Origin: Myxococcales bacterium
Lineage (GTDB): Bacteria > Myxococcota_A > UBA9042 > JABWCM01 > BTVJ01
Length of the DNA stretch: 44,003 nucleotides
Assembly (NCBI GenBank): GCA_045863395.1
Contig: BTVJ01000060.1
Coordinates: 1-44,003 of the forward strand
Direction of reading: 5' to 3'
Part shown: piece after piece, positions 8,585 to 39,482 of the stretch
Numbering within the stretch: position 1 is the first letter of the stretch
Layout of the letters: each line of letters starts with the position of its first letter
Program-made: the position numbers and the translations under genes
The notes under the pieces: model-generated
What the model was told of the DNA's origin: nothing
Database searches by the model: none
Seen by the model: the letters and a program-made list of their open reading frames with translations, nothing else

Positions 8585-10708
8585 GTGGCGGCGCTCTGCG
8601 AGCCGGGGCCCTTCACGCGGCTGCTGCACGACAGCGGCCTGCTCGGGGCCCTCCGCAAGGCCGAGGAGGATGGCAGCCGCGGCGCAGTCGGACCGCGAAG
8701 GGAGGCTGCCGGCCATCCGCGGCCGCAGCGCCCGGGGCCGTACATCGGGCCTCGGGGCGGTAAGTGGGCGGATCCAGAGCACACGATCCCATGGAAGCCT
8801 TCACAGGTGGACGATGGCGTCGCACTCGATGATGACGCCGATCCGAGTGAAGAACCAGGTTGCTCAGTACTGGTGACCGGATCTGAACCGCTCGGGCCCG
8901 TGAAGGCCCACATGACGGAGGACGAGGTACGCGAGGCCATCGGCGGGTGGCACGAGGAAATCGGCGTCATTTTTGGCCAAGACGGGAAGCAGCTTGCGCG
9001 AGCTACCAGCGGATCCAAGAGGAGGATTCGGTTCGACAAGGAGTCCATGACGAAGCTGCGAGACGTGGTGAAGGCCAATGGGTCTGTGAAGTTCCTGCAC
9101 AACCATCCATCCGGCCTGATGCTCTCGGGTGGAGACGTCGCGTTTGCTGTGAAGCTGAACATCCATGCCATCGAGAGCTGCAATCGCTTTGGAGATCAGT
9201 GGTGGGTGGAGCGTCCCAGGGACGGATGGACACCGCAAGCGGCGCTCAAGGGTGCACTGTTCCAGGTGGTCCGGGAGGAGGAGCGGGTCTCCTTCAACCG
9301 CGAGCGAGGGCTTGGCGGTGTTGCCGGCAAAGACTTCGTGCAGTACACTCAAGCAGAGGTGCTGGAACTCAACCGGCGAATCTCGGAGAAGGCCAAGAGC
9401 GATGACTGTCACGGACCACCACACTTTGCCGTCCGACATGCACCTGGGGTTGGTGTGCGGCGAGGACGGCTCCATGACGCTCGACGACGAGACTCCGCTG
9501 GATCGATACCCAGAGCTGGACACGGCGGAGAAGGCACTCAAGTTTCTCGCCGAGCGCAAGGCCAAGCTCAAGGAGATGCTGTCGGAAGTGGAGGCGACCG
9601 AGGCAAAGAACGTCCGCTAGACCGGCTCCGTCGCCTCCTCAGCCGCGAGAAGGGCGACGACATCAAGAAGGCTCAAGAGTTTCCCGACCTCCCGAACCCG
9701 CTCACCTTCACCGCTCTCCTCGAGCAGCTCAGAGCGAACGGCATCCTGGCTGAGGCATCCTCCGAGGGCCAGCAGGCCGCCGAGCAGGCCCCATCTGACA
9801 CCGCCGCCGGCTCGGCGACGCGCACCCGCCAGCACATCCCCCACAGCGCCCACCCGGTGAAGCTCGGTCCCCCGCCTGAGCCCAACCGGGCCGAGCACCC
9901 CTTCGTTGGCACCATCGAGTTCCAGGGGCTCGTCGTCGACGTCGAGAACAGGAAGGGCTCCTACCGCTCGGGCAAGAACGCCGACGGCACGCCATGGCGC
10001 GTGAAGATGCTCGCCCACTACGGGGAGATCCGTGGCACCGAGGGGACTGACGGGGACCCGCTCGACGCCTACGTAGGGGACAACGCCGACAGCAGCCTCG
10101 TCGTGGTCGTGCATCAGCGCGACCCCGAGACCAGGGAGTACGACGAGGACAAGGTGATGCTGGGCTTCGACTCGGCGGACGACGCCGTGCGCCTCTACCG
10201 GCGGCAGTATGACCGGCCCGGCTTCTACGAGAGCCACACCACCATGCCCATCGGCCAGCTCTGGCGATGGGTCCGCGACGAGCGCAACCACGGCCGCAAG
10301 GTCGTGAAGAAGGGAAGGACCATGAGCGACAACGTCATCAGCCTCCAGACCTGGACGGACCAGGTGCTCCAGAAGGGCAAGACCAACCTCGAGGATGCGG
10401 TCATCGAGGCGGAGCTTCGCAACGCGCTGCGACGGCACCTGCGCTGGAGGGAGGACACGCACAGCCCGGAGGTGTGCGCTCGACACTGCGCTGACGAGGT
10501 GATCACGCAGTATGCGATGCTGGACGCGACGAAGGTGATGCTGGCGAGCTACCTCGACCGGCGGGGGCCCGACGGCCTCTACGTGCAGGCCCTGGTGAGC
10601 CATCCCGCGATGGCGGCCGAGGTCCAGTCGGCGCGGGAGGCCATGGCGGCGCGCGCGCTGCTGGAGACCCACGGGCCGCAGTCGGCCTACGCCGTCAACG
10701 GGTACTGA
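8585..10708 (+). CDS. Multidomain putative head-packaged effector: shared leader + JAB/MPN domain + InPase-like domain
   Basis: Leader CEPGPFTRLLHDSG and GPYIGPRGGKWADPE; JAB motif E...HNHPSGLMLSGGD (about 8950-9260); FQGLVVDVEN.KGS.RSG...HYGEIRGTEGTDGDPLDAYVG...DEDKVMLGF resembles the phage inorganic-pyrophosphatase-like domain (about 9900-10290). Confidence 0.8.
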   Translation: MAALCEPGPFTRLLHDSGLLGALRKAEEDGSRGAVGPRREAAGHPRPQRPGPYIGPRGGKWADPEHTIPWKPSQVDDGVALDDDADPSEEPGCSVLVTGSEPLGPVKAHMTEDEVREAIGGWHEEIGVIFGQDGKQLARATSGSKRRIRFDKESMTKLRDVVKANGSVKFLHNHPSGLMLSGGDVAFAVKLNIHAIESCNRFGDQWWVERPRDGWTPQAALKGALFQVVREEERVSFNRERGLGGVAGKDFVQYTQAEVLELNRRISEKAKSDDCHGPPHFAVRHAPGVGVRRGRLHDARRRDSAGSIPRAGHGGEGTQVSRRAQGQAQGDAVGSGGDRGKERPLDRLRRLLSREKGDDIKKAQEFPDLPNPLTFTALLEQLRANGILAEASSEGQQAAEQAPSDTAAGSATRTRQHIPHSAHPVKLGPPPEPNRAEHPFVGTIEFQGLVVDVENRKGSYRSGKNADGTPWRVKMLAHYGEIRGTEGTDGDPLDAYVGDNADSSLVVVVHQRDPETREYDEDKVMLGFDSADDAVRLYRRQYDRPGFYESHTTMPIGQLWRWVRDERNHGRKVVKKGRTMSDNVISLQTWTDQVLQKGKTNLEDAVIEAELRNALRRHLRWREDTHSPEVCARHCADEVITQYAMLDATKVMLASYLDRRGPDGLYVQALVSHPAMAAEVQSAREAMAARALLETHGPQSAYAVNGY
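9402..9620 (+). CDS. Nested 72-aa gene in the +1 frame of the 8585 ORF (candidate partner/immunity protein)
   Basis: GGAGAAGG at 9385-9392, ATG 9402, TAG 9618-9620; third positions mostly G/C in this frame but not in the enclosing frame. Confidence 0.65.
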   Translation: MTVTDHHTLPSDMHLGLVCGEDGSMTLDDETPLDRYPELDTAEKALKFLAERKAKLKEMLSEVEATEAKNVR

Positions 10709-10724
10709 GCCCGAGGAGCAGCAG

Positions 10725-12338
10725 GTGGGCTGGATCCAGGATCTCTTCGAGAGGCGCAAGACGAAGCTGCAGAAGGCCGCGGAGACGACCGCGCCTGCTG
10801 TGCAGGCAGAGTCCACTCCGGCGCCCAAGGCGTGGGCCTTCGACCCGCAGCAGATGGCGTTCGTGTACGCCAGCGACGTGCCGACGGAGACGCACCCGGG
10901 CACCCTCGGTCTGCCCTACAGCACGCTCCTGGCCATGTCGCGGGTCCCGATCTTCGCGACGATCATCCAGACCCGCGTGAACCAGATGGCGGAGTTCTTC
11001 GTGCCGCGGTCGTCGCCGTACTCCGTGGGGTTCTGGGTTCGCCAGAGGGACCGCCAGGCAAAGCCGACCCCGGCGTCGCGACGGCGGGCGGCGGAGATCG
11101 AAGCGATGCTGCTGAGCGCGGGGGGGCGTCACGGCTACGGGGGGCTCGAACCGTCGGTGCGCGCGCTCGTGCGGGACGCGTTCATCTACGACCAGGCGAA
11201 CTTCGAGGTGCTCCGCACGCGTGGCGGGAAGCCCTGTGGGTTCGTCCCGGTGGATGCTGCCACGATCCGCCGGGCGCGTCCGTCGCGCGCGGCGCTGGAC
11301 GCCGGGCGTTGGGACCCGGAGCAGGCAGCCTACGTCCAGGTGGTCAACCAGCGCATCGTCAACGAGTACGGTCACGAGGAGATGGCCTGGGGCATCCGGC
11401 GGCCACGGACCTGGCTGTACGCGTCCGGCTACGGATACCCGGAGCTGGAAGAGCTGGTGCGCGTCACGACGAACCTGCTCAACGCCGACACCTACAACGC
11501 GACCAACTTCACCAACGGCATCCACGCGAGCACCATCCTGGCGGTGAAGAGCGCCATGGACCGCCCCATGTTCGAGTCGTTCCGCCGGAACCTCCAGGCG
11601 ATGATGACGGGGCCCCGCAACGCCAAGAAGACGCCCGTCGTGCAGCTCGACCCGAGCAACGACGCCAAGGAGGAGATCCAGGCGATCAACCTCTCGAGCA
11701 CGAACAAGGACATGGAGTTCTCGAACTGGCAGAACTACCTGATCAAGATGGCCCACGCGGTCTTCCAGATGGATGCGGCCGAGAACGGGTGGGTCTACGG
11801 CAATGAGGGTCAGAGCGGCAGCACCTTGAACCAGCGGGGGCCGTCTGAGCGGATCGACGCGAGCAAGGCGCGTGGCCTCCGGCCCGCCATCCGGTCGGTT
11901 CAGGGGTGGTTCAATGAGTGGCTGGTCTACCCCTACGACCCGGACTTCATGCTCGAACTGTCCGGCTACGACAGCATCACGGAGGCCGACAAGTTGGAGC
12001 TCGACGCCAAGAGCCTCAAGGCCTTCAAGACGGTCGACGAGGTCCGGGCGGAGCACGAGCTGCCGCCCATCGGCGGGGTTGCCGGGAACATGATCCTCGA
12101 CGCCGTGTACGCCCAGGCCTACCTGAAGCAGGACGCCGATGACGCTGCTGGCGATGACGACCCGCTTGGGGGCTACCTGGGGCAGGACATCGACGAGATG
12201 ACCATGAGCCTGGGCGCTGGGGTCGAGCAGCGTGTCAAGGACGGACGCCTGCTCACCAAGGGGCGCGGGCCTCGCGGGCGCTGGGTGCCCGTGCGGTCCG
12301 GGCAAGGGGTGCGCAGCTTCGTGGTCGAGGTGGACTGA
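10725..12338 (+). CDS. Portal protein
   Basis: IIQTRVNQ, FVPVDAATIR, GYGYPELE, DMEF..W..YLI and SKARGLRP motifs of SPO1/Twort-like portals; position after terL. Confidence 0.9.
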   Translation: MGWIQDLFERRKTKLQKAAETTAPAVQAESTPAPKAWAFDPQQMAFVYASDVPTETHPGTLGLPYSTLLAMSRVPIFATIIQTRVNQMAEFFVPRSSPYSVGFWVRQRDRQAKPTPASRRRAAEIEAMLLSAGGRHGYGGLEPSVRALVRDAFIYDQANFEVLRTRGGKPCGFVPVDAATIRRARPSRAALDAGRWDPEQAAYVQVVNQRIVNEYGHEEMAWGIRRPRTWLYASGYGYPELEELVRVTTNLLNADTYNATNFTNGIHASTILAVKSAMDRPMFESFRRNLQAMMTGPRNAKKTPVVQLDPSNDAKEEIQAINLSSTNKDMEFSNWQNYLIKMAHAVFQMDAAENGWVYGNEGQSGSTLNQRGPSERIDASKARGLRPAIRSVQGWFNEWLVYPYDPDFMLELSGYDSITEADKLELDAKSLKAFKTVDEVRAEHELPPIGGVAGNMILDAVYAQAYLKQDADDAAGDDDPLGGYLGQDIDEMTMSLGAGVEQRVKDGRLLTKGRGPRGRWVPVRSGQGVRSFVVEVD

Positions 12339-12592
12339 TGCGTGTGGTCGTCCAGGAGACCTTCCCGGGGGAGCTCTCGGGGCTCTCGCCAGAGTCTCTC
12401 CGCCGCCGCCTGGACCTTGGGTTGGCGGAGGCTCGGGGGCTCGTCATGGCGAAGGCGGGCGGCGCCCACACGGGGGAGCGCATGGAGGCGTTGGACGAGC
12501 TGACTGCGCTCCTCACGAGGGGCTACGAGCGGCGACTGAAGCAGCTCCGCGAGGACGTCTTGCGCGTGGCCGGCTCCGCGAGGACCTCTTGA
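12338..12592 (+). CDS. Small head-module hypothetical protein
   Basis: TGATG coupling to the portal gene; contains VMAKA. Confidence 0.6.
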   Translation: MRVVVQETFPGELSGLSPESLRRRLDLGLAEARGLVMAKAGGAHTGERMEALDELTALLTRGYERRLKQLREDVLRVAGSARTS

Positions 12593-12597
12593 CCGCG

Positions 12598-13935
12598 ATG
12601 CCGAGTCATGTCTCGGTGGACCACTTGGTCGACGAGGTCCTGCGCGTGACCCGCGCTCACCAGGATGCGTGGATGGTCGAGGTCCTCGGGGCAGCCCAGG
12701 CGGGGCTGGGGGCGGATCGGATCGGCGAGCTGGAGGCTGGCGGATACCTCGACGGGCGACATCTGGGGGGTGTCCGTGTGCCAGGCATGAAGGCGCTCAT
12801 TGACCCTTGGGCGTTCGCGCTCCTGATGGGCATTCTCGTTGCTCGTGCAGCCCCCGACGTGGTGCCGCGGATGAGGCGCTGGTCGCTCTCCGAGTGGGTG
12901 GACGAGGTGGACCAGGAGCTGGAGCGGCGGGAGGCTCCAGAGCCGGGGGCTGGGCGCCAGTCGCCCCCGGCAGAAGGAGCCGCGCCAGGCACGACATCAC
13001 CAGCCGCGGCCCATGCACCACCCCCACGGCATGAGGAGGCGGCGCCTGTGTCGCCGGCGCAAGCACCTTCACGTCCGGGAGGAGAGGCGGTGCAGTCTCC
13101 GCTGCCCGCGATGACGCCCCCTCCACCCGTGGAGCCTCTGCTGCCCCCTCCGCCTCCTTCTCCGCCGGGTCGTGGTGTTGCGCCTCCTCGGTCGCCGGCG
13201 AAGTCTCCATCGTCTCCCCAGCCCCCGCCCGGGGGCACGGCGCCACCCTCTCCGCCGGTGGAGCCCCCTCCGCCCCCCCCGCCTCCACCTTCGGGGGGTG
13301 GTGGTGGAGTCATCCCTGCGCCACCACCTGGGCTCGCCGACACCGAGCGGGAGGCTTGGATTCAGGCTCGCACCCGCGGCGGAGAGTACTGTCGCGGGCT
13401 CGGCAACGTGGTCGACGACGAGATGCGGACGCTCGTGAGAGAGCAGTGGGACGGGTGGAACATCGTCAAGGAGGCCGACGAGGACACGCGGCGCCGTGTG
13501 GTGGGGATCATCCAGCAGAAGACCGCGCAGGCCATCGAGGAGCGGCGAGACGCTGCGTGGCTGGCCGGCGAGCTGGGGGATGCCACGGGGGACTGGGCGC
13601 GCAATTGGGCGCGCATCGCGAGGACCGAGCTGCAGGGGGCCTACGTCGAGGGGGTCGTCATCGACGCGATCCGGCAGGAAGGGGCCGGTGCCCGGATCGC
13701 TCGGATCCCGGAGCCTGGGGCCTGTGAGCACTGCCGGCGCGTGTTCCTGGACGAAGCGGGGCGCCCACGCATCTTCACAGCCGAGGACCTGGTCAACAAC
13801 GGCACCAACGTGGGGCGGAAGGCGGCTGACTGGCGCGCAACGACGTGGCCGGTGCACCCGAACTGCGCCTGTGACGTGCAGGTGGTTCCTCCCGGCATGG
13901 AGTTCGACGCCAAGGGGCGGTTGGTGAAGGCATGA
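12598..13935 (+). CDS. MuF/SPP1 gp7-like head morphogenesis protein with Pro-rich linker
   Basis: WARIARTEL, GACEHC and HPNCAC motifs; ends ...GRLVKA. Confidence 0.85.
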   Translation: MPSHVSVDHLVDEVLRVTRAHQDAWMVEVLGAAQAGLGADRIGELEAGGYLDGRHLGGVRVPGMKALIDPWAFALLMGILVARAAPDVVPRMRRWSLSEWVDEVDQELERREAPEPGAGRQSPPAEGAAPGTTSPAAAHAPPPRHEEAAPVSPAQAPSRPGGEAVQSPLPAMTPPPPVEPLLPPPPPSPPGRGVAPPRSPAKSPSSPQPPPGGTAPPSPPVEPPPPPPPPPSGGGGGVIPAPPPGLADTEREAWIQARTRGGEYCRGLGNVVDDEMRTLVREQWDGWNIVKEADEDTRRRVVGIIQQKTAQAIEERRDAAWLAGELGDATGDWARNWARIARTELQGAYVEGVVIDAIRQEGAGARIARIPEPGACEHCRRVFLDEAGRPRIFTAEDLVNNGTNVGRKAADWRATTWPVHPNCACDVQVVPPGMEFDAKGRLVKA

Positions 13936-14153
13936 GTCGAGGCACAGCCAGCGGGCGACCTGACGTACCAAGGAACGTGCGCTGTACGACCTGTGACGCG
14001 GTGCTCGGGAACTGGGTCGATGGGCGGCTCATGATCCGCGTGCAGTCGCGCGCGCTGGTGGTGCAACCCACGGGGCAAGCCGAGGTGCGGTGTCACCACT
14101 GCAAGGGGAACGCTCTGCTACCGCTTTTCACAGCCGCGACACAAGGGGCTTGA
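13932..14153 (+). CDS. Small zinc-ribbon protein (Mu Com-like)
   Basis: VRCTTCDAVLG...VRCHHCK, 73 aa, ATGA coupling. Confidence 0.65.
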   Translation: MSRGTASGRPDVPRNVRCTTCDAVLGNWVDGRLMIRVQSRALVVQPTGQAEVRCHHCKGNALLPLFTAATQGA

Positions 14154-14178
14154 CCATATAGTGCAACTGTCGTAGGCT
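14150..14178 (+). promoter_or_regulatory. Sigma70-like promoter for the head operon
   Basis: TTGACC-17 nt-TAGGCT in an AT-rich patch upstream of the protease gene. Confidence 0.6.
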
Positions 14179-14191
14179 GACGTCCGAAACC

Positions 14192-14245
14192 GATGAGAGG
14201 CCCACAAGGGGCGCCGGTCGCAAGGCCAGCGCCCCTTTTTGTTTT
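14192..14245 (+). promoter_or_regulatory. Conserved leader hairpin, copy 1 (terminator/attenuator-like)
   Basis: AAGGGGCGC-C-GGTC-GCAA-GGCC-A-GCGCCCCTT followed by TTTGTTTT; related copies at 35523 and 42582. Confidence 0.7.
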
Positions 14246-14280
14246 CACGGACCTGACAGCATCGAGGGACCCGAGAGCCG

Positions 14281-15057
14281 ATGGCGAGCCTGACCCCACA
14301 CGTGATGCACCTCTGGGCCCCCTTCGACCTCGTCGAGAAGGGGGGCGAGGGCGAGGGTGCAGTCAAGCTCGGCCGGATCAAGGGCATCGCGTCGAGCGAG
14401 ACCCAGGATGCGGACGGCGAGGTCGTGGACCAGGCGGGCATCGACTGGAGCTTCTTCAAGTCCCATGGGAGAGGGGCGGTGACCCTCGAGCATCCGGTCG
14501 GCGTCTTCAACCTCATCGGCGAGGGCGTGGACGTGCGCCTCATCGACCTCGACGGCATACCGGCGACCGAGCTGGAGGCGGACCTCATCCTTACCGACCC
14601 CATCGGCCAAGCGGTCTGGGAGAAGGGGCGGGCCCTCAAGAAGGCAGGAGCCAGGACGAAGCTCGGGTTCAGCGTCGAGGGGCAGTGGCTCGAGAAGAAG
14701 GGCAACCGCATTACCAAGTCTCGGGTGACCTCCGTTGCCGTCAGTGCGGCGCCGAAGAACCCCCACACCTGGTGGGAGCCGATGGCGGCGTCCCTCCTGG
14801 CCGCGTTTCGCGGCGCTGCGGATCCTCGCGCGCTGTGGCGCGCCGAGGGCGTCGGCTACCCGGCCCAGGGGCAGGTCGTGACCGGCGGCCTCGCAGCCCT
14901 CGTCCCCCAGAGCATGCAAGGGTTCGACCCGAGGCTCCTCGAGGAGCTCACGAACGATGACCTGCTCGTGACCCGGGTGCTGCGGCAGTTGCCGCAGCTC
15001 TCCTGGTCTCAGGGCCAGAGCTTGATCGCGGACCTCCGCACCCGGATGGACGCCTGA
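14281..15057 (+). CDS. Prohead (maturation) protease
   Basis: IKGIASSETQDADGEVV, TLEH (His), GFSVEG (Ser) and VAVSAAPKNPHT motifs of HK97/herpes-fold proteases. Confidence 0.9.
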   Translation: MASLTPHVMHLWAPFDLVEKGGEGEGAVKLGRIKGIASSETQDADGEVVDQAGIDWSFFKSHGRGAVTLEHPVGVFNLIGEGVDVRLIDLDGIPATELEADLILTDPIGQAVWEKGRALKKAGARTKLGFSVEGQWLEKKGNRITKSRVTSVAVSAAPKNPHTWWEPMAASLLAAFRGAADPRALWRAEGVGYPAQGQVVTGGLAALVPQSMQGFDPRLLEELTNDDLLVTRVLRQLPQLSWSQGQSLIADLRTRMDA

Positions 15058-15071
15058 CGCGAGGGAGAGAG

Positions 15072-15773
15072 ATGAAGGCGAGCGAGCTGCGCAAGAGTCT
15101 GACGGACGCCAAGATCGCGACCGTCGAGATCGACCGGATGGTCGGGGCCCAGGTGGCCGCCGGGGCCATCGAGAACGACGAGGCTCCGGCGCCTTCGAGC
15201 CCCGTGAGCGACGAGCTGTTCAAGGCCGTGGACGCCGCGACCAACCAGCTTCGCAAGAGCATGGATGGAAGCCCCGCGGCTTCGCCGCAGCCGGCCGATG
15301 TCAGCCAGGCGCCCAAGGACGTCTCGGGCGGCGACATGAGCAAGGCCGTGGACGTCTTCGCCAAGGGAGCCGACGCCATCCTCCAGCAGGTGGGCGACCA
15401 GCACCGCACCCTCGCCGGCGGGTACCTGGCGCTGGGGCAGCTCAACCAGGCGATGGCGAAGGCGCTGACCGAGCAGGGTGAGCGCCTGGCCGCCCAGGAC
15501 GCGAAGCTCGACACCATCCTCAAGGCGCTGAGCCAGCCGGTTCCGCTTCGCTCCGTGACGGGGCTGACCACTGCGGTCCCGGCGCCTGGGGAGACGCCGA
15601 CGGGGCCCGCAAAGAGCACCCACGCAGCGGTCCTGCAGAAGGCGATGGGCGAGATGCAGAACCCTTCGACCACCATGGACCGCAGGCGTCAGCTCGCCTC
15701 GGCGGTGGCGCTGCTCGACTCCCACGGCGATCCCGCTGAGATCGCCGCCAGCTTCGGTATCACGGTCGGCTGA
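15072..15773 (+). CDS. Putative scaffolding protein
   Basis: Lies between protease and capsid, helical, with repeated ELRKS/ELFKA/QLRKS/DMSKA/VFAKG/AMAKA/TILKA/VLQKA motifs. Confidence 0.7.
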   Translation: MKASELRKSLTDAKIATVEIDRMVGAQVAAGAIENDEAPAPSSPVSDELFKAVDAATNQLRKSMDGSPAASPQPADVSQAPKDVSGGDMSKAVDVFAKGADAILQQVGDQHRTLAGGYLALGQLNQAMAKALTEQGERLAAQDAKLDTILKALSQPVPLRSVTGLTTAVPAPGETPTGPAKSTHAAVLQKAMGEMQNPSTTMDRRRQLASAVALLDSHGDPAEIAASFGITVG

Positions 15774-15829
15774 CGCAACACGTTCCGAGGGCGCGGCCGC
15801 CCATCGGCGAGGAGAAGGAGCGACACATC

Positions 15830-17535: not shown

Positions 17536-17544
17536 GAGCAGACG

Positions 17545-31169: not shown

Positions 31170-31172
31170 CAG

Positions 31173-31913: not shown

Positions 31914-32077
31914 GAGTGCTGCCTCGACGCGCCAGGGCAAGGGGTTCGGGTGCCCGGCAGCGTGGTGGGCGGCGCAGAGGTGGGCGTTGGCGAAGGGGCG
32001 AGGGTGGCGCGTGACTCGAGGAGCGGTGCGGGAGCGGTGCGGGAGCTGCCCCGCGGGGGCCCGCTGCCCGCCGCCCC

Positions 32078-32275
32078 CTACGGTGGGTCGATGCCCGCTT
32101 GCTTGAAGATGGCCCGCGTGAGGCCCCGGCCGAGCGTATTGCGCGGGTGCGGGACCGTGACCGTGTTCGGCCGCTCTGGGTGCCGGTACTGGTGATGCGA
32201 TCCGCTCACGCGGTCCAGGCTCCATCCGTGCACCTTCAGGATGCCGATAACCTCATGACTGCTGTATGACTCAAT
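32078..32275 (-). CDS. hicA: HicA-family mRNA interferase toxin (orphan, ATT start)
   Basis: (I)ESYSSHEVIGILKVHGW..DRVSGSHHQYRHP...VTVPHP...L..G..RAIFKQAG; intact GSH catalytic motif. Confidence 0.85.
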   Translation of the reverse strand: MESYSSHEVIGILKVHGWSLDRVSGSHHQYRHPERPNTVTVPHPRNTLGRGLTRAIFKQAGIDPP

Positions 32276-32311
32276 GTGTGCATTGATACACACTTGATCG
32301 CGGACCGTCAA
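32274..32311 (-). promoter_or_regulatory. hicA promoter with overlapping inverted repeat
   Basis: Minus strand TTGACG-17 nt-TATCAA(T); TGTGT-N8-ACACA inverted repeat spans the -10 element. Confidence 0.6.
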
Positions 32312-32507
32312 GCGGAATCGTGCGCACGAATGCGCACTGATGTGGGGCGGGCGGATGGTCGGGAGCGAGCGAGCGCGGCGCGGGTCAGCGCGAGGGGCGG
32401 ACGGGAGCGGGGAGCGGGCCAGAGCGGAGTGGTCTAGCCTGCCGCTTCGTCGTCCGGCCCCGCATCAGGTCCTCCCCACCCGCACCCAAGGAAGTCCCAT
32501 ACTCTTC

Positions 32508-32897
32508 GTGACGCACCCCGATGACCGGGACGAGGAGCTGTCGCGGAACGGCTTCCCGACCGTCGTCGAGTGGCGCTCCTTCCTCGAGGCGTGGTGGGCG
32601 ACGCTCGGCCCCAGGGTGGTCGGGAGCGAGCGGCTGGTCTCGATGTGCGACAGGCAGGCGGTGCTCGGACCGTTCCTCGGTACGGGCACCGAGCGAAGCA
32701 GGCGCACGAAGCTCGGGATCCTCGTGACGCAGCGGACGGACCTGGTCGAGGAGGTGTTCGCGTCACCGGGCGCGAGCGAGGGACGGGGAGGGGACGAGCG
32801 ACGCGGCTTCCACGTGCGGATCGAGCGGTGCCGCGACCGCAAGTACAAGATCTCCATGTATCGCCTGGTCCGTGTCGTGCCGGCCCCAGCGGACTGA
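32508..32897 (+). CDS. Hypothetical protein (possible winged-helix-like DNA-binding domain)
   Basis: GC3-biased frame from GTG 32508; W..F..AWW...LG.G.ERS..TKLG pattern reminiscent of phage primase/helicase C-termini (weak recall). Confidence 0.5.
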   Translation: MTHPDDRDEELSRNGFPTVVEWRSFLEAWWATLGPRVVGSERLVSMCDRQAVLGPFLGTGTERSRRTKLGILVTQRTDLVEEVFASPGASEGRGGDERRGFHVRIERCRDRKYKISMYRLVRVVPAPAD

Positions 32898-32947
32898 GCG
32901 GTGAGCGGCGTACCGATGGTCCCTTTCCTCGCGGCGCCCATGGCCAT

Positions 32948-33610
32948 ATGATGGCGGACATGGGCACTCCGAACCACACCTGCACACCGGAGCCGGGCCC
33001 CTTCACCCGGCTCCTGCATGACAGCGGGATGCTCGATCTGCTGACCCACACGGAGGGGGCGGTCCCGCCACAGCCTGCGCAAATCGAAGGGCCCTTTGCG
33101 CGTCTCCTGCGGGAGCTCGCGTTGGAGAAGGGCAAGGGCAAGGACGACGGCAAGGGCACGCCGTACAACCGGCACCGTGGGCGGCTCCGTCGGGAGGGGG
33201 TGGTCTACGAAGGGCCGCGAGGAGGGCGGTACGCCGACCCGGAGCGCAAGATCTCGCTCAAGCGCAACGAGGGCGAGGCGAAGGAGCGTTCCGAGGCGGG
33301 GTCCAGGCCGGACCCGAAGGGGCCCCACGACTCTGTGTCCAAGCACGATCCCGAGCAAAGGCCGGACCAGTGGAAGCTCGGCTCCCACAAGTCGGTCACC
33401 ACGTGGCGCAATCAGATGGCGAAGCGAGGCTGGACGCCCAGGCAGATCGCAGAAGCCATATACATGGGTGAACGGTCTCCCGCGGCAAACAAGGTCAACA
33501 AGGGCAACTCGGCCTCTCGCTACGTGCATCCGACGACGGGAAGGCGGGTCATCGTCGATGATGTCACCCAGGAGGTGCTCCATGTCTCAGCCGAAGCATT
33601 CCAAGAGTGA
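32948..33610 (+). CDS. Shared-leader effector with C-terminal colicin E5-like ribonuclease domain
   Basis: Leader EPGPFTRLLHDSG, LALEKG and GPRGGRYADPE; C-terminus NQMAKRGWTPRQI...A.RY...VIVDDVTQEVLHVS aligns by eye with colicin E5 QMPERGWT...ATVY...VVVNDRTGEVTQIS. Confidence 0.75.
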   Translation: MMADMGTPNHTCTPEPGPFTRLLHDSGMLDLLTHTEGAVPPQPAQIEGPFARLLRELALEKGKGKDDGKGTPYNRHRGRLRREGVVYEGPRGGRYADPERKISLKRNEGEAKERSEAGSRPDPKGPHDSVSKHDPEQRPDQWKLGSHKSVTTWRNQMAKRGWTPRQIAEAIYMGERSPAANKVNKGNSASRYVHPTTGRRVIVDDVTQEVLHVSAEAFQE

Positions 33611-33887
33611 GAGCGTCATCGTGTACGTGCAGCTTCTGAACGAGGGGACCGAGGTCTATCGGCCCGCCTTGGCAGCGCCTACCAGTCCGACCACGGCTAC
33701 CATCTTGGTGCCGAAGAACTATGATCCTGAGGACGAAGAGTGGGAGTTCAAGCCAGGCACGATGGTTCGGCTCGAACTCCGGAAGTTGGGTGGCGAGAAG
33801 GACTACCACTGGAAGTACGGCTATATCTCGGGCCCCTTCGTGTGGGTCATGGTCGCCGTCGCCGATGTGAAGGAGCCGCGAGGGTGA
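33582..33887 (+). CDS. Putative immunity protein for the E5-like toxin
   Basis: AGGAGG at 33570-33575, ATG 33582, overlaps the toxin 3' end by 29 nt; acidic core VYVQLLNEGTEVYRP...YDPEDEEWEFKPG. Confidence 0.65.
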   Translation: MSQPKHSKSESVIVYVQLLNEGTEVYRPALAAPTSPTTATILVPKNYDPEDEEWEFKPGTMVRLELRKLGGEKDYHWKYGYISGPFVWVMVAVADVKEPRG

Positions 33888-33919
33888 GGTTTCAGCCGAC
33901 TCTCCGCAGGAGGTGACCC

Positions 33920-35485
33920 ATGGCCTTCGACCCATTCCGCCCCGTCAAGTACCTGCTCCGGGTGGAGTCCACCCTCTCCGGTCTGGTGTCCGCCGGACTT
34001 GGGGACATCGGCGGGCGTGCCATCGAGCTGCCGCTCGTGTCGTCGATCTCCCGGAGCCGGGTGGAGGCCACAACGCTGACTTGGACGCTGAGTGCTGAGC
34101 CATTCCGCGAACCGTCTGGGCTCCGCGAGGAGGAGATCACCCTCTCGGGGCGCTCTGGCCTCACGCCTCGTCTCGGCGCGGATCGCCAGGGGGCGCTGCT
34201 CTATGGGACGGGGCCCGAGCTGTTCCAGGAGCTCGAGGAGTTCCTTCGCTCCTACCAGAGCCGGATCAAACGAGCCTACGCAGAAGGCACGGTGGACGGG
34301 ATCCGGCTGGTGTTCTCCGCGCCCTGGGAAGGCATCGACGTGTACGTCGAGCCAGGTCAGGTACGTTGGGTTCGGGAAGTCGGCGCGTCACGGCACTCCT
34401 ACGCCTGGACGCTCACGCTTCGGGCGTATGGAGACGCCACGCCGGGCCCCTTCGACATCTTCGAGGCGGCGCGCTCCGTCGCCAACTACGTGCGCAAGGT
34501 GGTCAACAGCGTCACGGCCTACATCGCGCTGGGGACCAGGTACGCCAAGGAGGTGAACAGCGTCGGTGACGCCTTCCGCGGGATCATCTGGTCGGGGGTC
34601 TCGATGATGACGGAGGTGCGCAACGCCATCGGGGAGCTCAGCCGTGCGGTGCGCATGCCACAGGCGGTCGTAGAGGACGCGTTCCGGGTGGCCGAGCAGG
34701 CGACCCTTGCTGCCTACGACGCCTACACCGCGATCCCCGGTGTACCCACAGCCGCTGGCCGCCGCGCGTTCGTGGATGCGCTCGAGACGCTTGGGGATGC
34801 TCGGCGCTCGGCGCTCGAAGCGCTCGGTGCCTCGAGGCTGGATGGCAGCGCGTCGGCGACCCACGACCAGCTCCGAGGCACGACGTCGGCGGCGCTCATG
34901 GCTGGCTCAGGGGCGGACTCCGCAGCGCCGGGTCCGGTCACGACCCACGTCCTGTCGGCAGGCGAGACCCTGCACGACGTCGCCCAAGCCTACCTTGGCG
35001 ACGCCGAGCGGTGGCCGGATGTCGCGGTCGCCAACGGCCTTCCGGACCCCTATCACATGGCGTCTGGCGCCCAGCTCGTACCCGGGACCGTGCTCATCAT
35101 CCCGACCGCAGCAGTGCCTCCATCAGCGGATCATCGCACCGACCTTCTGCTCTCGCCGAGCGGAGATCTCGTCGTCGCTGGAAGCGACCTCGCCGTCGTC
35201 TCTGGGCTCGACAACCTCCTGCAGGCGCTGTCGGTGCGGTTGCGCACGGAGCGCGGTGAGTCGCCGTGGCCGGCCTACGGTGTCGAGCCGATGGTGGGCG
35301 ACTCGCTCCGCACCACCGCCGTCGCCACCGCCGTAGCGTCGGTGCGGTCGCAGGCACTTGCGGACCCGCGTGTGTCGATGGTGCAGCGGACGGGGGTACA
35401 AGACCGGGGCGATGCGATCCTGGTGGAGTGCGACGTGGTCCCGGTGACGGGGACCGCCTTCACGGTGCTGGCGGCCGTGGCGTAG
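33920..35485 (+). CDS. Baseplate protein: LysM domain fused to a gp25/W-like wedge domain
   Basis: THVLSAGETLHDVAQAYLGDAERWPDVAVANGL (LysM); GDLV...DLAVVSGLDNLLQAL..RL.TERG...PAYG...ADPRV (gp25-like). Confidence 0.75.
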   Translation: MAFDPFRPVKYLLRVESTLSGLVSAGLGDIGGRAIELPLVSSISRSRVEATTLTWTLSAEPFREPSGLREEEITLSGRSGLTPRLGADRQGALLYGTGPELFQELEEFLRSYQSRIKRAYAEGTVDGIRLVFSAPWEGIDVYVEPGQVRWVREVGASRHSYAWTLTLRAYGDATPGPFDIFEAARSVANYVRKVVNSVTAYIALGTRYAKEVNSVGDAFRGIIWSGVSMMTEVRNAIGELSRAVRMPQAVVEDAFRVAEQATLAAYDAYTAIPGVPTAAGRRAFVDALETLGDARRSALEALGASRLDGSASATHDQLRGTTSAALMAGSGADSAAPGPVTTHVLSAGETLHDVAQAYLGDAERWPDVAVANGLPDPYHMASGAQLVPGTVLIIPTAAVPPSADHRTDLLLSPSGDLVVAGSDLAVVSGLDNLLQALSVRLRTERGESPWPAYGVEPMVGDSLRTTAVATAVASVRSQALADPRVSMVQRTGVQDRGDAILVECDVVPVTGTAFTVLAAVA

Positions 35486-35487
35486 CA

Positions 35488-35517
35488 TTGCCATCGCGAT
35501 TGCAATGGCCATATACT
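35488..35517 (+). promoter_or_regulatory. Sigma70-like promoter with overlapping palindrome
   Basis: TTGCCA-18 nt-TATACT; near-perfect palindrome ATTGCcATCGCGATtGCAAT. Confidence 0.65.
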
Positions 35518-35522
35518 GTCAC

Positions 35523-35570
35523 GATGAGGCCCACGAAGGGGCGCAGACCGAGAGGTCGGCGCCCCTTCGT
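35523..35570 (+). promoter_or_regulatory. Conserved leader hairpin, copy 2
   Basis: GATGAGGCCC-ACGAAGGGGCGC-A-GACC-GAGA-GGTC-G-GCGCCCCTTCGT. Confidence 0.7.
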
Positions 35571-35587
35571 CGTTCTGAAGGACAAGC

Positions 35588-36970
35588 ATGCCGCTCTCCT
35601 CGTACACGCCGAGCACCAAGGCCGAGGCCCGCGACCGGATGATGGCGCGCGTCGTTGGCGGCGCCGGTCCCTTGGACGACGTCACGGAGGGGGGCGTCGC
35701 CTACACCCTCCTCGATGCAGTTGGCGAGGAGGTGGAGGCGATCGAGTTCCGCCAGTGGCGGTTCGTGCGGGCGTACTCCTTCGAGGACGCCGTCGGTGAG
35801 GAGCTGGACGAACGCGCGGCGCAGCTCCCACCCGGGAAGCTGCGGCCGCAGCGGCTCGGCCCGACGGTCGCCACGGCACAGGCCCTCCGGATCACCCGGG
35901 CCAACCCTGCTGGGGCCCTGACCCTTCCTGCCGGCGCGCTCTGCCGGAGCTCGGTCACCGGGCGATCCTACCGCATCGTGGGTGCTGTGGACCTGGCCGA
36001 CGGCGTGGCCGTCCACCCTATGCTCGTCACCATCTCGGCGCTCGAGCCCGGCTCGGTGGGTTCTGCTGCCACCGGGACGATTGACCAGATCGATGGCTTC
36101 CAGGTCCAGGTCATCAACGAGAAGCCCCTGGTGGGGCACGACACCGAGGCCGACGTCAGCTTCCGCCAGCGGTGTCTGCTCTACCTGTCGAGCCTCGGGG
36201 GCCTCCAGGCGGCGGCGCTGCGCCTCCTGGCGCTGTCGTTCGTGTCGGCTGACGGTGTGCGGCTCCAGCACGCGAAGGTGTACGAGACGCCGTTCGCGCC
36301 GGCCTACGCAGAGCTGATCGTCGATGATGGAACGGGGATGGGCGCGTGGGCGCGACCGGGTCTACCCTACGAGGGCACAGCTCCTCCCGGGGGACAGTCC
36401 CTGCTCTGGTCCGATGGGCCGGCCAAGACCGAACCGCGGATCTACGTCGGCGGCGCGCTCGTCGCCAAGGGCTGGCTCCCCGTCGAGGAGCAGGGCCAGG
36501 TCTTCCTCGAGGTTGCATTGGCCGGGGGTGCGTCATGGCGCACCGAGGTGGACGAGGTCTACACCGGGCCCATCGCCGAGCTTCAGGCCGTCGTCAACGG
36601 CTCGACGACGGACCCACTCGACGACCCAGGGCACCGGACCTGCGGCGGACGGGTGCGCGTGGTTGCACCAGTGGTCCAGCAGGTCAAGGAGAAGCTGCTC
36701 CTGAACCTGCAGACCGGCGCGGACGCCGACGCGGCGAAAGAGTCGCTCCGGGCCATCGCCGAGGCGCACTACCGAGCGCTCGGCCCGGGCGAGCCGCGCC
36801 TGCTGGCGCCGTACATCGCAGCGCTCATGGGGGAAGCGCGGGTGCGAAACCTCCGGGTGGTGGATGGCACCACACTGCTCCCCGCCGGCGACTTGTATCC
36901 ATTCGGACCTGAGGCGCACCGCGCGGAGCTGCGCCTCTCCGAGCTGACCTTCGGCCAGATCCTGGAGTAG
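35588..36970 (+). CDS. Baseplate J-like wedge protein
   Basis: DVTEGGVAYTLLDAVGEE, DAVGEELDERA, ALEPGSVG and GHDTEADVSFRQR motifs. Confidence 0.85.
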   Translation: MPLSSYTPSTKAEARDRMMARVVGGAGPLDDVTEGGVAYTLLDAVGEEVEAIEFRQWRFVRAYSFEDAVGEELDERAAQLPPGKLRPQRLGPTVATAQALRITRANPAGALTLPAGALCRSSVTGRSYRIVGAVDLADGVAVHPMLVTISALEPGSVGSAATGTIDQIDGFQVQVINEKPLVGHDTEADVSFRQRCLLYLSSLGGLQAAALRLLALSFVSADGVRLQHAKVYETPFAPAYAELIVDDGTGMGAWARPGLPYEGTAPPGGQSLLWSDGPAKTEPRIYVGGALVAKGWLPVEEQGQVFLEVALAGGASWRTEVDEVYTGPIAELQAVVNGSTTDPLDDPGHRTCGGRVRVVAPVVQQVKEKLLLNLQTGADADAAKESLRAIAEAHYRALGPGEPRLLAPYIAALMGEARVRNLRVVDGTTLLPAGDLYPFGPEAHRAELRLSELTFGQILE

Positions 36971-36973
36971 ACG

Positions 36974-38182
36974 ATGGAGAAGCTCATCACACAGGTCGGC
37001 GAGCGCCTGGACCGTGGCGACCTTCATGCCCTCCAGGACCTCGTCTACGAGTACCTCGGCCGGGTCCTGGGAGGCGTGCTGGGCCCCGGCTCAGGCGTGC
37101 TCACGGTGCCGAGCATCGATATCTTGCCGTTTTTTAGGCTCGGGCTCGGCGAGGCGCTGCTCCTGACAACGGTGCCGGGTGGCTCCCACGGGCGCCTGCC
37201 GACGGGGCGCCTGGTCCGATACGACCCGACCCTTCCAGGCCAGGACACGGAGGTGGACCTCTCGGGGTTCGTGGGAGTGCCGACCTTCATCTGGGCGCGC
37301 GCCGTGACGGGACCGATGGACTCGGACACGCGTCGTGCCTGGGACATCGACTCGCAGAGCGAGGAGGTCGTCTCCATGACGACGCGGCTCCGCGAGCGCG
37401 TGGAGTGGTCCGCGGGGCACACGAAGCCGGTGGGAGACGGGTGGTTTCAGGCCGCGCGCGTCGGGGGGTGGCTGGGCAGCGTCCCTGTGGTCGTCTGGAT
37501 TCACGCCTGGGACCGCACGCAGGACGGGCAGAGCAGTGCGACGCAGGCCAGGGCGCTCATGGCTGTAGCCGGGTTGCCTGGCGACCACACGTGGCTCGGG
37601 CTGGGAGCGGTCGTGCAAGCGGCGCTGCGGGCATTGGGCCGGATCCATGACACGGCCGAAGGTGTGGAGTGGTACAAGGCGCCCCCGCGAGGGCTCAAGC
37701 AGGTAGACGCGGCGCTTACTCGGTTGGAGGCGTCGCGGAGGCTGGCTGTCGAGAGCGCCGTGTTGATTCCATCGGACCAATTCTTGTCGGGGATCTTCGG
37801 TCTCACATTCTTCCCAGGCACGTATCCAGGTGGCCAAGTGTACATCCCAATTCGCGAGCCGGCGGGCCGCGTGCTCGTCTCAGTGGACGTATCCGCTCAT
37901 GTGGATGCCACGGCTCCGCAAGAGCCCGACGACGACAACACAATCGCTGTCAAGCTACTGCGCATTGACACGGTGTCTGAAGAGATAGTCGCTGCGTCAG
38001 ATGAGGTGACGTGGCTCGGCGCCAACGACGCCGACGCTCCGAGCGTCAAGACAGTGGTTCCCTCCGGTGGCTCCTATGTGTTTGCCGCCAACGAGGGGCT
38101 GTGGCTCAGAGCCATCATGACGAACGGTGGCAATGCGGCGACACTGAAGATCAAGCACGTCACCGCCAACTTCGGAGCCTGA
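36974..38182 (+). CDS. Putative baseplate/tail-fibre-associated protein
   Basis: GERLD..DL..LQ N-terminus; C-terminal third less GC-rich (possible swapped receptor-binding part); follows baseplate J. Confidence 0.55.
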   Translation: MEKLITQVGERLDRGDLHALQDLVYEYLGRVLGGVLGPGSGVLTVPSIDILPFFRLGLGEALLLTTVPGGSHGRLPTGRLVRYDPTLPGQDTEVDLSGFVGVPTFIWARAVTGPMDSDTRRAWDIDSQSEEVVSMTTRLRERVEWSAGHTKPVGDGWFQAARVGGWLGSVPVVVWIHAWDRTQDGQSSATQARALMAVAGLPGDHTWLGLGAVVQAALRALGRIHDTAEGVEWYKAPPRGLKQVDAALTRLEASRRLAVESAVLIPSDQFLSGIFGLTFFPGTYPGGQVYIPIREPAGRVLVSVDVSAHVDATAPQEPDDDNTIAVKLLRIDTVSEEIVAASDEVTWLGANDADAPSVKTVVPSGGSYVFAANEGLWLRAIMTNGGNAATLKIKHVTANFGA

Positions 38183-38186
38183 GCCC

Positions 38187-39482
38187 GTGATCATGAAGTG
38201 CGAGCCTGGGCCCTTCACGCGGCTCCTGCACGAGAGTGGGCTGCTCGAGGCCATCCGGCGCAGGGAGATCGCTACGCTCGCGAAGGGCACGGCCGCCCCT
38301 GCCGACCCCGTAGAGGACCCGCTCGTGCGCATCGTCCGCGAGGCCATCTTGCGCGAGCTGCGGAAGGGTCGGGGTGGATCCGAGAGCGACGAAGTCGGCA
38401 GGCGTCGAGAGCACCATGGGCCCTACCTGGGACCGCGGGGTGGGAAGTACGCCGATCCGGAACTTACGCGCTCGTGGAAGGAACCTGATTCCTTGGTGCG
38501 AATGTCTGCCACGGACCAGAAGTCGTCGGACGAAGCTGGGGAGGACGATCTTCCTCCCCCCGTCTTTGCCATGCGCGGCGACATGACACCTGTTGGTCCG
38601 GTTACGGCTGACATGAACCGCACGCAAGTAGAACGGGTGATCTGCTCCAGCGATGTCGAAATCGTCGTCGCCTTCGACTCGAAGGGCAAGCAGATATTTC
38701 GGGCGACCAACAACGATCCGTGGAGCTGCGAGTTCGATACCGATTGGATCGATGCGGAAGTTGAGGATCTGGTTCACAATCACCCGACTGGGTCGTGCCC
38801 ATCGCCTGGAGACATTCTCGCACAGATCCAGGTCCACGCGAAACGACACCGTGTGGTCGTAAGTGTTGACAACGGCAACGGCAAGGTACTGACGAGGGTG
38901 TGGGTGGTCCATTGCCCGCCTGGAAGTATCGAGGATTGGATGGCGCCGCTTACGAAGGCAGAGGAACTGGCGCGCCGCACGGCGAGCGGAAGAGCTGCGG
39001 AGACCGCAGGCGTTCGCGGGGTTCGGAACCTGGAACGGTGGAAGAGAGCCCATCCTCGTGAGTGGGTCGCCACCTTGAACGTTCACATGCTTCGAAACTA
39101 TACTGCCCTGGGGCTGACGATCACGGAGGAGGCCCATGAGTCCATCAAAGAGGGACAGCCGCATCCGGCTGAGCAGCAAGTGGATTTTCCATCCCACTCC
39201 TTTGCCGACGCCGAAGCAAGCGCGCCTGGAGCGGGAAGCCTTCGAGGAGATGGCTGCCAAGCACCGCAAGTGGCTCGAGGACCGAGCCAAGGCGGCGAAG
39301 ACGGAAGCCGTGGGGAATTCGAAGGCCCCCTGACCCGCCTCGTCCGCTCCTGCTTCCGCAAGGCGACTCCGCCCGACCCCTCGGAGCTCCCGACCCCTCT
39401 CACGTTCACCGCCATCTTCGAGCAGCTCCGGGCCCAGGGCATCCTGCCCCAGGGCGGAGCCTCGTCACGCAGCGCGAGGTAG
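38187..39482 (+). CDS. Shared-leader effector with JAB/MPN domain (paralog of the 8585 N-terminal half)
   Basis: CEPGPFTRLLHESG, ELRKG, GPYLGPRGGKYADPE; E...HNHPTGSCPSPGD; C-terminal LPTPLTFTAIFEQLRAQGIL. The start may be ATG 38193. Confidence 0.8.
   Translation: MIMKCEPGPFTRLLHESGLLEAIRRREIATLAKGTAAPADPVEDPLVRIVREAILRELRKGRGGSESDEVGRRREHHGPYLGPRGGKYADPELTRSWKEPDSLVRMSATDQKSSDEAGEDDLPPPVFAMRGDMTPVGPVTADMNRTQVERVICSSDVEIVVAFDSKGKQIFRATNNDPWSCEFDTDWIDAEVEDLVHNHPTGSCPSPGDILAQIQVHAKRHRVVVSVDNGNGKVLTRVWVVHCPPGSIEDWMAPLTKAEELARRTASGRAAETAGVRGVRNLERWKRAHPREWVATLNVHMLRNYTALGLTITEEAHESIKEGQPHPAEQQVDFPSHSFADAEASAPGAGSLRGDGCQAPQVARGPSQGGEDGSRGEFEGPLTRLVRSCFRKATPPDPSELPTPLTFTAIFEQLRAQGILPQGGASSRSAR
39136..39333 (+). 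CDS. Nested 65-aa gene in the +1 frame of the 38187 ORF (candidate partner/immunity protein)
   Basis: GGAGGAGG at 39125-39132, ATG 39136, TGA 39331-39333; GC3 bias favours this frame. Confidence 0.65.
   Translation: MSPSKRDSRIRLSSKWIFHPTPLPTPKQARLEREAFEEMAAKHRKWLEDRAKAAKTEAVGNSKAP

Follow-up and report, generated by a model that had tools for sequence, protein, structure and literature searches.

A junction peptide of phage polyvalent proteins and a candidate prohead protease site in the shared leader of three late phage genes

Introduction

Three genes dispersed over one contig of a Myxococcales bacterium assembly (BTVJ01000060.1, C60) begin with the same short leader and then run on into different toxin-like or enzymatic cargo, and the question raised by this arrangement is what the leader is for. 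The contig in its entire length of 44,003 bases, referred to here as the window, belongs to an 8.77-Mb assembly of 186 contigs; its GC content is about 70%, and every convincing gene lies on the + strand. Since terminase, portal, protease, capsid, sheath and baseplate genes are all found on that strand, the window is the late-gene block, or structural module, of an uncultured contractile-tailed phage. A first-pass annotation of the same DNA had interpreted the three genes as a polymorphic effector system, in which an unrecognised leader might target cargo into the prohead and the protease might trim it there at LxK sites before injection.

Several phage systems provide the background. Polyvalent proteins are among the largest and least understood phage weapons, and their cutting and loading have so far been a matter of guesswork. 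They were predicted to be packaged, delivered with the DNA and proteolytically processed (Iyer, Burroughs, Anand, de Souza and Aravind 2017, PMC5512222). In phage T4, a capsid targeting sequence directs internal proteins to the scaffolding core (Rao and Black 2010, PMC3012670), and DarB of phage P1 carries an N-terminal packaging signal of 30 residues that is sufficient to package a reporter (PMC9024508). For MuF polymorphic toxins, a small downstream open reading frame (ORF) was taken as the immunity gene at 89.4% of 191 toxin genes (Jamet et al. 2017, PMC5576092). Here we report that one half of the shared leader is a peptide found between the modules of giant polyvalent proteins, where a candidate prohead protease site precedes it, and we favour, with moderate confidence, the reading that the leader serves capsid targeting and processing of effectors that are packaged in the head and injected.

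Results and Discussion

Three dispersed late genes share one leader

The three genes encode P0001 (707 aa, 8585-10708, +), P0002 (220 aa, 32948-33610, +) and P0003 (431 aa, 38187-39482, +). Translations and a protein alignment confirmed that all of them start with C-EPGPFTRLLH[DE]SG[LM]L, a helix followed by a putative protease site (ALRK|A, ALEK|G or ELRK|G) and then by [PV]Y.GPRGG[KR][WY]ADPE. In P0001 the leader helix (aa 1-25; 8585-8659, +) ends at the putative site LRK|A, and behind it come the junction motif GPYIGPRGGKWADPEHTIPWK (8735-8797, +), a RadC/JAB-like domain, a linker, a second helix with its site, an InPase domain and a C-terminal domain of 120 aa. This second helix, ERPLDRLRRLL...IKK|A continuing into PLTFTALLEQLRANGIL (9620-9790, +), is common to the C-terminus of P0003. 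P0002 comprises the leader, a second helix EGPFARLLRELALEK|G, the junction motif VVYEGPRGGRYADPERKISLK (33200-33262, +) and a colicin-E5-like domain at aa 154-215, while P0003 comprises the leader, a second helix, the junction motif GPYLGPRGGKYADPELTRSWK (38418-38480, +), a JAB-like domain, a linker, and a helix with FRK|A followed by PLTFTAIFEQLRAQGIL. Internal helices of the GP[FL]xRL type, which had been pointed out before, are indeed present in the three translations as EGPFARLL, EDPLVRIV, ERPLDRLR and EGPLTRLV.

At the DNA level, the 45-nt leader core of the P0003 gene differs from that of the P0001 gene at 5 bases, 4 of them synonymous, and the P0002 gene differs from the P0001 gene at 6 bases, 5 of them synonymous. 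With 9 of 11 base differences synonymous, the peptide is under purifying selection rather than a fresh DNA copy. A search of the whole 8.77-Mb assembly with a leader profile returned these three genes and no fourth (next match E 0.03).

The two halves of the leader have different distributions. For the first helix, a word search of 5.8 billion proteins gave the query alone, no relatives were found in IMG/VR or GTDB genomes, and 22 of 22 pattern matches in JGI metagenomes were chance matches in unrelated ORFs; likewise, the second module common to P0001 and P0003 (PLTFTALLEQLRA.GIL) had no relatives in IMG/VR. The leader is therefore a composite of a first helix that had no relatives in these searches and a widespread GPRGG half. 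Its description as unrecognised holds for the first helix and fails for the GPRGG half, which is the junction motif of polyvalent proteins described in the following section.

The GPRGG half is a junction motif of giant polyvalent proteins

The junction consensus reads L-x-K-[AGS]-G-(G)-P-[FY]-I-G-P-R-G-G-K-W-A-D-[PA]-x-H-T-I-P-W-K-E and is followed by a linker rich in K, G and P. Relatives were collected with the search pattern PRGG[KR][YW]AD, which left the flanks of the motif free. Of 154 matches in IMG/VR, 124 were confirmed, and GTDB genomes added 6 more loci, in metagenome-assembled genomes of Lentisphaeria, Sedimentisphaerales, Myxococcales, Planctomycetota and an unclassified proteobacterium; removal of near-duplicates left 119 motif copies in 80 ORFs. 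An exhaustive profile search of 1.84 billion cluster representatives gave 807 proteins with E<=1e-3, of which 559 had E<=1e-10. The best 150 of the 807 all had 2-5 copies of the motif, with lengths from 260 to 3135 aa (median 1062). Against a junction profile of 48 positions, the three window genes scored 57.7 (P0001), 50.3 and 41.1 bits, partly by construction since the profile includes them, and no other match below E 0.68 was found in the rest of the window.

Pfam domains were detected in 46 of the 80 motif-bearing ORFs, most frequently InPase (15 ORFs), ddrB-ParB (12), SNF2 helicase (9), Zeta_toxin (4), Topoisom_I (3) and ART-PolyVal (2), with RadC, PRTase, SAM lyase, RelA_SpoT, GGDEF, DarA_C, LPD1, PAP2, PAPS reductase and Mom as rarer ones. 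This is the polyvalent-protein repertoire given in the cited text of Iyer 2017 (PMC5512222), and, judging from its placement in the sequences, the junction motif marks the boundaries between modules of giant polyvalent proteins. As a separate observation, the SNF2 modules of three of these ORFs (L071 636-6155, L078 417-6206 and L083 924-6164) are interrupted by intein/homing-endonuclease domains (Hom_end, LAGLIDADG_3, Hint_2).

No Pfam model covers the junction motif, and the profile had no match in PDB. A term search found no such peptide in the text of Iyer 2017 at PMC5512222, and the text of the MuF toxin paper at PMC5576092 held no mention of a conserved motif, cleavage, linker, boundary or junction. 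Literature searches turned up no description of it, although a named domain in the supplement of Iyer 2017 could still cover the motif. This widespread junction tag, together with its candidate cut site, is the most useful product of the analysis. The junction peptide alone had no predicted secondary structure, with a predicted local distance difference test (pLDDT) value of 65, and the lack of a predicted fold fits a linear motif. A complex prediction from alignments of 62 rows for the capsid protein and 121 rows for the junction peptide, run with no controls, scored 0.00 and has no bearing either way.

A candidate prohead protease site precedes the junction

HK97-type proteases cut after lysine. 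Sites were defined as [LIVMFWY]-x-K-[AGS]. Such a site ended within 6 aa before the junction in 105 of the 119 copies of the IMG/VR and GTDB set, and in 291 of 334 copies of an independent set. The same site is strongly enriched in the scaffold candidate of the window (15072-15773, +), with 8 sites against 1.0 expected, a number reached in 0 of 2000 shuffles. Relatives agreed in 8 of 8 cases: their scaffolds held 8-12 sites where 1.0-2.0 were expected, a number that 0 of 2000 shuffles reached for any of them. Enrichment in the scaffold proteins is 7- to 10-fold.

Other head proteins, whose identities, like those of the other window genes, come from protein-family scans, carry the site at their ends. 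The major capsid protein (15830-17290, +) has only two sites, of the h-x-K-[AG] type and both within residues 1-38; its LNK|AL is kept as L[NR]K|AL at the start of the capsid protein in 8 of 8 relatives, and 62 homologs show hardly any variation at A26 and L27. The prohead protease (phrog_1028; 14281-15057, +) has VEK|G at its N-terminus, and the proteases of 11 of 12 relatives have h-x-K|[AGS] some 10 residues ahead of the catalytic core. The portal (10725-12338, +) has one site at each end, LQK|A at the N-terminus and LLTK|GRGPRGRW in the C-terminal tail. Among the cargo proteins, P0003 holds 4 sites where 0.8 would be expected (p 0.0035), and P0001 holds 5 where 1.65 would be (p 0.027). In comparison, tail and replication proteins mostly have 0-1 sites and some 2-3, none of them significantly above expectation. 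Thus, the proposal that the LxK-type sequences are sites of the prohead protease gained considerably from the enrichment and conservation in scaffold, capsid and protease: they very probably are its sites, and cutting there is predicted.

Junction proteins are encoded beside head genes

In order to describe the surroundings of the motif, homologs of window proteins were located by tblastn and counted within 5 kb of the motif at 81 loci. A portal homolog was present at 50 loci, a homolog of the portal-adjacent domain of 12598-13935 at 52, a protease homolog at 16 and a capsid protein homolog at 11. In relatives, the portal-adjacent domain is frequently the N-terminal part of the giant motif-bearing ORF, whereas in the window it is a separate gene (12598-13935, +). 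We presume this head-protein domain to be MuF-like from its position and a C-x2-C...HPxCxC signature, a label unconfirmed by any search. The gene stops with ...GRLVKA*, a junction-type site, exactly where relatives run on into GPYIGPRGG, and because of this the window phage looks like a version with its cargo taken off the carrier, as far as the sequences tell. None of P0001, P0002 and P0003 contains the portal-adjacent domain. The earlier statement that the carrier is not MuF thus applies to this phage and does not extend to its relatives, whose carriers start with the MuF-like domain.

Two further observations concern ends of neighbouring genes. The C-terminal tail of the portal (12255-12290, aa 510-522) reads LLTK|GRGPRGRWVPV and resembles a decayed junction, which would fit a portal that formerly carried fused cargo. 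Upstream of the cargo gene of the closest IMG/VR relative (L022), a giant ORF (L022 1-4734) ends with ...FSDIVHKALR* at a junction-type site, and the gene after it begins with a long leader, described below, and a junction.

A proposed capsid-targeting and processing leader

The reading that we favour would work as follows. Effectors would be made late and loaded into the procapsid, where the prohead protease would trim them, and the trimmed effectors would probably be ejected with the DNA into the next host. The leader would combine three elements, namely one or two amphipathic helices of the form E-x-P-[FL]-x-R-L-[LV]...., a hydrophobic-x-K|[AG] sequence at each helix end as the cut for an HK97-type protease, and the linear peptide GP[YF]IGPRGGKWADPxHTIPWKE, which is strongly conserved. 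Site and peptide alike punctuate giant polyvalent proteins that a large lineage of uncultured phages encodes beside the portal; in this phage the cargo modules would have been detached from the carrier and would now occupy three separate positions in the late operon, every one with a junction of its own. Cutting at the site, location in the head and injection are steps that the sequences suggest; as for the partner of the GPRGG peptide, our guess is either a docking site within the head or a protease exosite.

Several results weigh against this reading. The first leader helix is without relatives, so comparison cannot probe its role, and in the window 16-27 residues lie between the site and the GPRGG peptide, which are adjacent in relatives. 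The site count of P0002 (2 against 0.57 expected, p 0.12) is not significant. Two of the three leader genes sit among baseplate and fibre genes, not head genes. The domain of 12598-13935 had no MuF match in Pfam, NCBIfam, PHROGs or PDB, and the assignment of the JAB-like domains depends on a motif and a single profile match of 80% probability. Junction queries had no match in GenBank phages, a weak negative since the queries were short and low-complexity filtered. Finally, P0003 is 98% conserved in the relative compared below, with no cargo turnover there.

A more far-reaching form of the proposal, which we put forward tentatively as a possibility, would make the junction and h-x-K|[AGS] a universal portable cargo tag of a large lineage of uncultured phages. 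The prohead protease would cleave at all junctions, and the modules set free would keep the peptide as an N-terminal docking handle for a conserved head component, in the manner of encapsulin cargo-loading peptides that bind HK97-fold shells; any enzyme could be loaded and injected, either within a polyprotein or as a free gene at any place in the late operon, and overprinted small genes would be dedicated inhibitors silencing the cargo in the producing cell.

Sequence turnover behind the junction of the toxin gene

The region 32300-40600 is present in 20 runs of 9 studies, and a comparison covering P0002 and P0003 was made with a relative on a 23.8-kb contig (run X9; the same pieces occur in X14). 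From 32503 to 33280, that is, through the P0002 leader to 18 codons past the GPRGG core, there were 10 differences in 778 bases (98.7% identical). From 33280 to 33855, which holds the E5-like domain and the small gene behind it, the alignment was patchy, with aligned bits about 89% identical; segments of 87, 129 and 85 bases were swapped for 66, 126 and 40, and a further 70 bases had diverged. The next stretch, 33855-37112, was 91% identical, and 38208-40600, with all of P0003, was 98.2% identical. Given 98.7% identity before 33280, a patchy alignment after it and a flank at 91%, the toxin-immunity cassette is the fastest-changing part, and the break lies just behind the junction.

The colicin-E5-like domain of P0002 passed the Pfam cut-off (Colicin_E5, PF12106; 29.0 bits against 25, E 1.3e-6), and its direct match to colicin E5 in PDB was weak (E 0.38). 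The immunity-like small gene (33582-33887, +; 101 aa) overlaps the end of the toxin gene in the +1 frame, has an AGGAGG ribosome-binding site, and had no family match. The E5-like domain is the sole recognisable toxin with an immunity-like neighbour among the three cargoes. Of the polymorphic-toxin interpretation, therefore, a constant N-terminus, varied cargo and a small downstream gene remain, and the recognisable toxin with its neighbour is limited to P0002. Toxin-demarcating motifs of polymorphic toxins include VENN in CdiA and PxxxxDPxGL in Rhs; the junction resembles them as a short conserved peptide behind which cargo and immunity diversify, here with the drop 18 codons past the GPRGG core, and differs in its sequence, its delivery machine and its presumed protease.

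The position of this breakpoint, the GC content of the cargo, which is lower than that of the leaders as would be expected for imported cassettes, and the immunity-like neighbour of the E5-like gene would all suit unpackaged late morons, that is, toxin-immunity or host-takeover enzymes acting in the producing cell, with the leader as a recombination cassette boundary left by module shuffling. We consider this unlikely, because the peptide is kept at the protein level across very different phages and the leader differences in the window are mostly synonymous, which argues that the peptide itself is functional, and because a pure gene boundary would not explain a motif that occurs up to 5 times within a single protein.

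Small +1-frame genes behind the cargo domains

GC content by codon position gave a +1-frame coding signal after each of the three cargoes, in agreement with the small partner genes that had been proposed. Besides the immunity-like gene of P0002, these are a gene of 72 aa (9402-9620, +) in the linker of P0001 and a gene of 65 aa (39136-39333, +) in the linker of P0003, the latter with GGAGGAGG as ribosome-binding site; both are nested in the long ORFs, whose own frame stays open. For 9402-9620, GC at codon positions 1/2/3 was 0.63/0.36/0.86 in the +1 frame against 0.86/0.64/0.36 in the host frame. Neither embedded gene had an HNH or other family match, and their likeness to each other was not significant (E 2.5).

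One could regard the two long ORFs as gene-calling artefacts, each of them two or three genes made up of a leader-JAB gene, the small gene and a downstream module, with the host frame open by chance at 70% GC. In fact, host-frame GC at third codon positions (GC3) falls to 0.36 and 0.53 across the embedded genes, a non-coding pattern, and synonymous resampling left the host frame open by chance in 18% and 27% of trials. We nevertheless think it improbable, since the JAB reading frame has no stop codon, so that the ribosome must read through, since no usable in-frame start was found near the downstream modules of P0001 and P0003, where GTG 9455 and GTG 39270 are the only candidates, and since host-frame GC3 returns to the coding level of 0.87-0.92 directly after the embedded gene. 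The simplest reading is that P0001 and P0003 are polyproteins and that a small gene has been overprinted on the linker between their modules. The ShiLan/HNH case, according to the cited part of PMC11855218, similarly has a small gene one base out of frame within a stop-free host frame; here, by contrast, the small genes are of 65-72 aa and follow each JAB-like domain, where an immunity or partner gene would sit.

Position of the cargo genes in the late-gene block

The late-gene block contains an exonuclease (4460-5128, +), the large terminase (6449-8155, +), the head genes given above, a tail sheath (24436-26472, +), a baseplate hub (33920-35485, +), a baseplate wedge or J-like protein (35588-36970, +), a PKD-bearing protein (39486-40559, +) and an amidase (42558-43376, +). 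P0002 is directly upstream of the baseplate hub, and P0003 lies between a baseplate gene and the PKD-bearing, fibre-like gene, as might be expected if the cargo were loaded into the tail and the leader were an N-terminal loading signal of the contractile-injection-system type, placing it in tube or baseplate. P0001, in contrast, lies between terminase and portal, the junction relatives adjoin portal, protease and capsid genes and not tail genes, and the sites before the motif match those of head proteins. Position near baseplate genes is also no obstacle to head packaging, as T4 alt lies near such genes and its product is packaged in the head, according to the cited text of Iyer 2017 (PMC5512222). 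Tail loading is accordingly quite improbable in our view.

Cargo domains

The cargo is less GC-rich than the leaders (0.60-0.61 against 0.69-0.75), as the first-pass annotation had stated. InPase and the colicin E5-like domain pass Pfam cut-offs; the JAB-like parts had no Pfam match even at E 10. Candidate effector domains are the JAB-like domain and InPase in P0001 and one recognisable cargo each in P0002 and P0003. The InPase domain of P0001 (PF18823; 9908-10273, +, aa 442-563; E 1e-37) scored 129.5 bits against a gathering score of 26.8. InPase occurs in 461 phage records, and the portal C-terminus of PDB 9b41 also matches (E 6e-18); from phage annotations, this portal fusion and the cited part of Iyer 2017 (PMC5512222), it is a known virion module.

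The RadC/JAB-like domain of P0001 (8867-9400, +; HNHPSG...S..D) and its counterpart in P0003 are paralogous (26% identity, E 7e-14). Both have the pattern HNHP[ST]G..x..S..D, in which the H-to-S spacing is one residue shorter than in the JAB metal site E...H-x-H-x7-S-x2-D, and profile alignment to a Pfam-verified RadC domain of a relative gave an hhalign probability of 80% (E 1e-5). Among 166 candidates of near lengths (97-312 aa), no homologue of the JAB part was found at E<=0.001. In ESM Atlas the part fell beside unnamed clusters, with Phage_min_cap2 (0.87), Prok-JAB (0.83) and RadC (0.82) as the nearest named ones, which serve as leads only, and the AF2 model of the block (pLDDT 45) was unusable. 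Polyvalent proteins ordinarily carry JAB-like and InPase domains as anti-host enzymes, and neither is a classic polymorphic toxin.

The ubiquitin C-terminus resembles the R-G-G of GPRGG|K, and with a JAB-like domain in two of the three window proteins one could imagine these domains as processing enzymes that free the modules by a deubiquitinase-like cut after Gly-Gly. This is very improbable, as a RadC/JAB domain is present in 1 of the 80 motif-bearing ORFs of relatives and so cannot be the general junction enzyme, and as RadC-type JAB was argued, in the cited text of Iyer 2017 (PMC5512222), to act on nucleic acids and to have no groove for a ubiquitin tail.

Comparison with known delivery systems

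By analogy, the logic of the capsid-targeting leader is closest to T4 capsid targeting and P1 DarB, and its content is closest to polyvalent proteins and MuF toxins. As in the former two, according to the cited parts of PMC3012670 and PMC9024508, a short conserved N-terminal signal stands on diverse anti-host proteins, which are injected in those systems. The leader here has no sequence similarity to those signals, is longer and bipartite (a helix with the site, and a conserved 22-residue peptide) and recurs between modules in relatives, and its function is a predicted one.

Polyvalent proteins as presented in PMC5512222 share InPase, RadC-type JAB and BECR-fold RNases with our set, and their genes lie among portal, terminase and virion genes; a packaging and virion gene context was likewise found in the window and in relatives. 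They differ in that the cited text names zincin-like metallopeptidases as processors, where our candidate is the prohead protease at h-x-K|[AGS], and in that the window has short separate genes with one or two cargo domains and a common leader. MuF toxins (PMC5576092, in the part cited) have an N-terminal carrier associated with the phage head, a toxin part that varies at the C-terminus, and behind the gene a small ORF. The latter two are found in P0002 with its E5-like domain and 33582-33887; an N-terminal MuF domain is absent from the three window proteins, the portal-adjacent domain being a gene of its own.

What the comparison adds is a testable cut site and a 22-residue tag in at least 807 protein clusters, tied to the prohead protease rather than to built-in peptidases, with the same tag also present in genes that stand alone. 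Should the tag suffice for loading, it would provide a handle to package chosen proteins in phage heads and a simple sequence rule to spot injected effectors in metagenomes.

A second, long leader and other features of the phage

Other N-termini occur among junction proteins. Of the best 150 junction proteins, 24 place the first junction 30-110 aa into the chain, 46 place it closer to the start (less than 30 aa) and behind a short M...h-x-x-h-x-K-[AGS], and 25 open with a long leader, a conserved domain of some 90 aa (MRLxLEATPxEL... / M+V.LQE..PGEF), whose cargo varies (GGDEF with GNAT, LPD1, SNF2, ART, InPase). Pfam gave no significant match for the long-leader domain, and PHROGs and NCBIfam gave none. 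In the window it forms a free gene of 84 aa (12338-12592, +) that follows the portal, precedes the MuF-like gene and matches the L022 cargo gene at E 5e-8, and free long-leader genes of 80-112 aa are common at the same place in relatives (e.g. L048 780-1043, L063 3550-3885, L037 3695-3934). No relationship of the three window leaders to this family was detected (hhalign probability 0.1% without the motif, BLASTP E 1.3). An 18-nt direct repeat, CTCCGCGAGGAC[G/C]TCTTG, occurs twice within 12544-12591, 29 nt apart, encoding LREDVL where the 84-aa gene ends and, read in frame with the MuF-like gene that follows, LREDLL; it could be a split or fusion scar of the two genes, yet free long-leader genes are common in relatives.

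As to the phage itself, a near-DNA search with the head module and a tblastn search with P0003 gave no match in GenBank phages. A capsid protein 98% identical to that of the window (P0155) is present on other public contigs, the longest of 27,950 bases, which indicates that very close relatives exist for comparison of the cargo loci. In the relative compared above, 567 other bases stand in place of the last 469 before P0003 (37738-38208, where gene 36974-38182 has its C-terminal end), as if the tip of a baseplate or fibre protein had been exchanged.

The protease tail GGLAALVPQSMQG and a capsid stretch behind the propeptide, GDLAPLVPQSIQG (aa 52-64), contain a common short motif, and in L022 PLVPQSLEAT is found in both protease and capsid protein; the motif may be an assembly contact. 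Directly upstream of P0001, a gene of 107 aa (8252-8575) contains VKEAGPFEEISG, the faint likeness of which to the leader EPGPF is probably due to chance.

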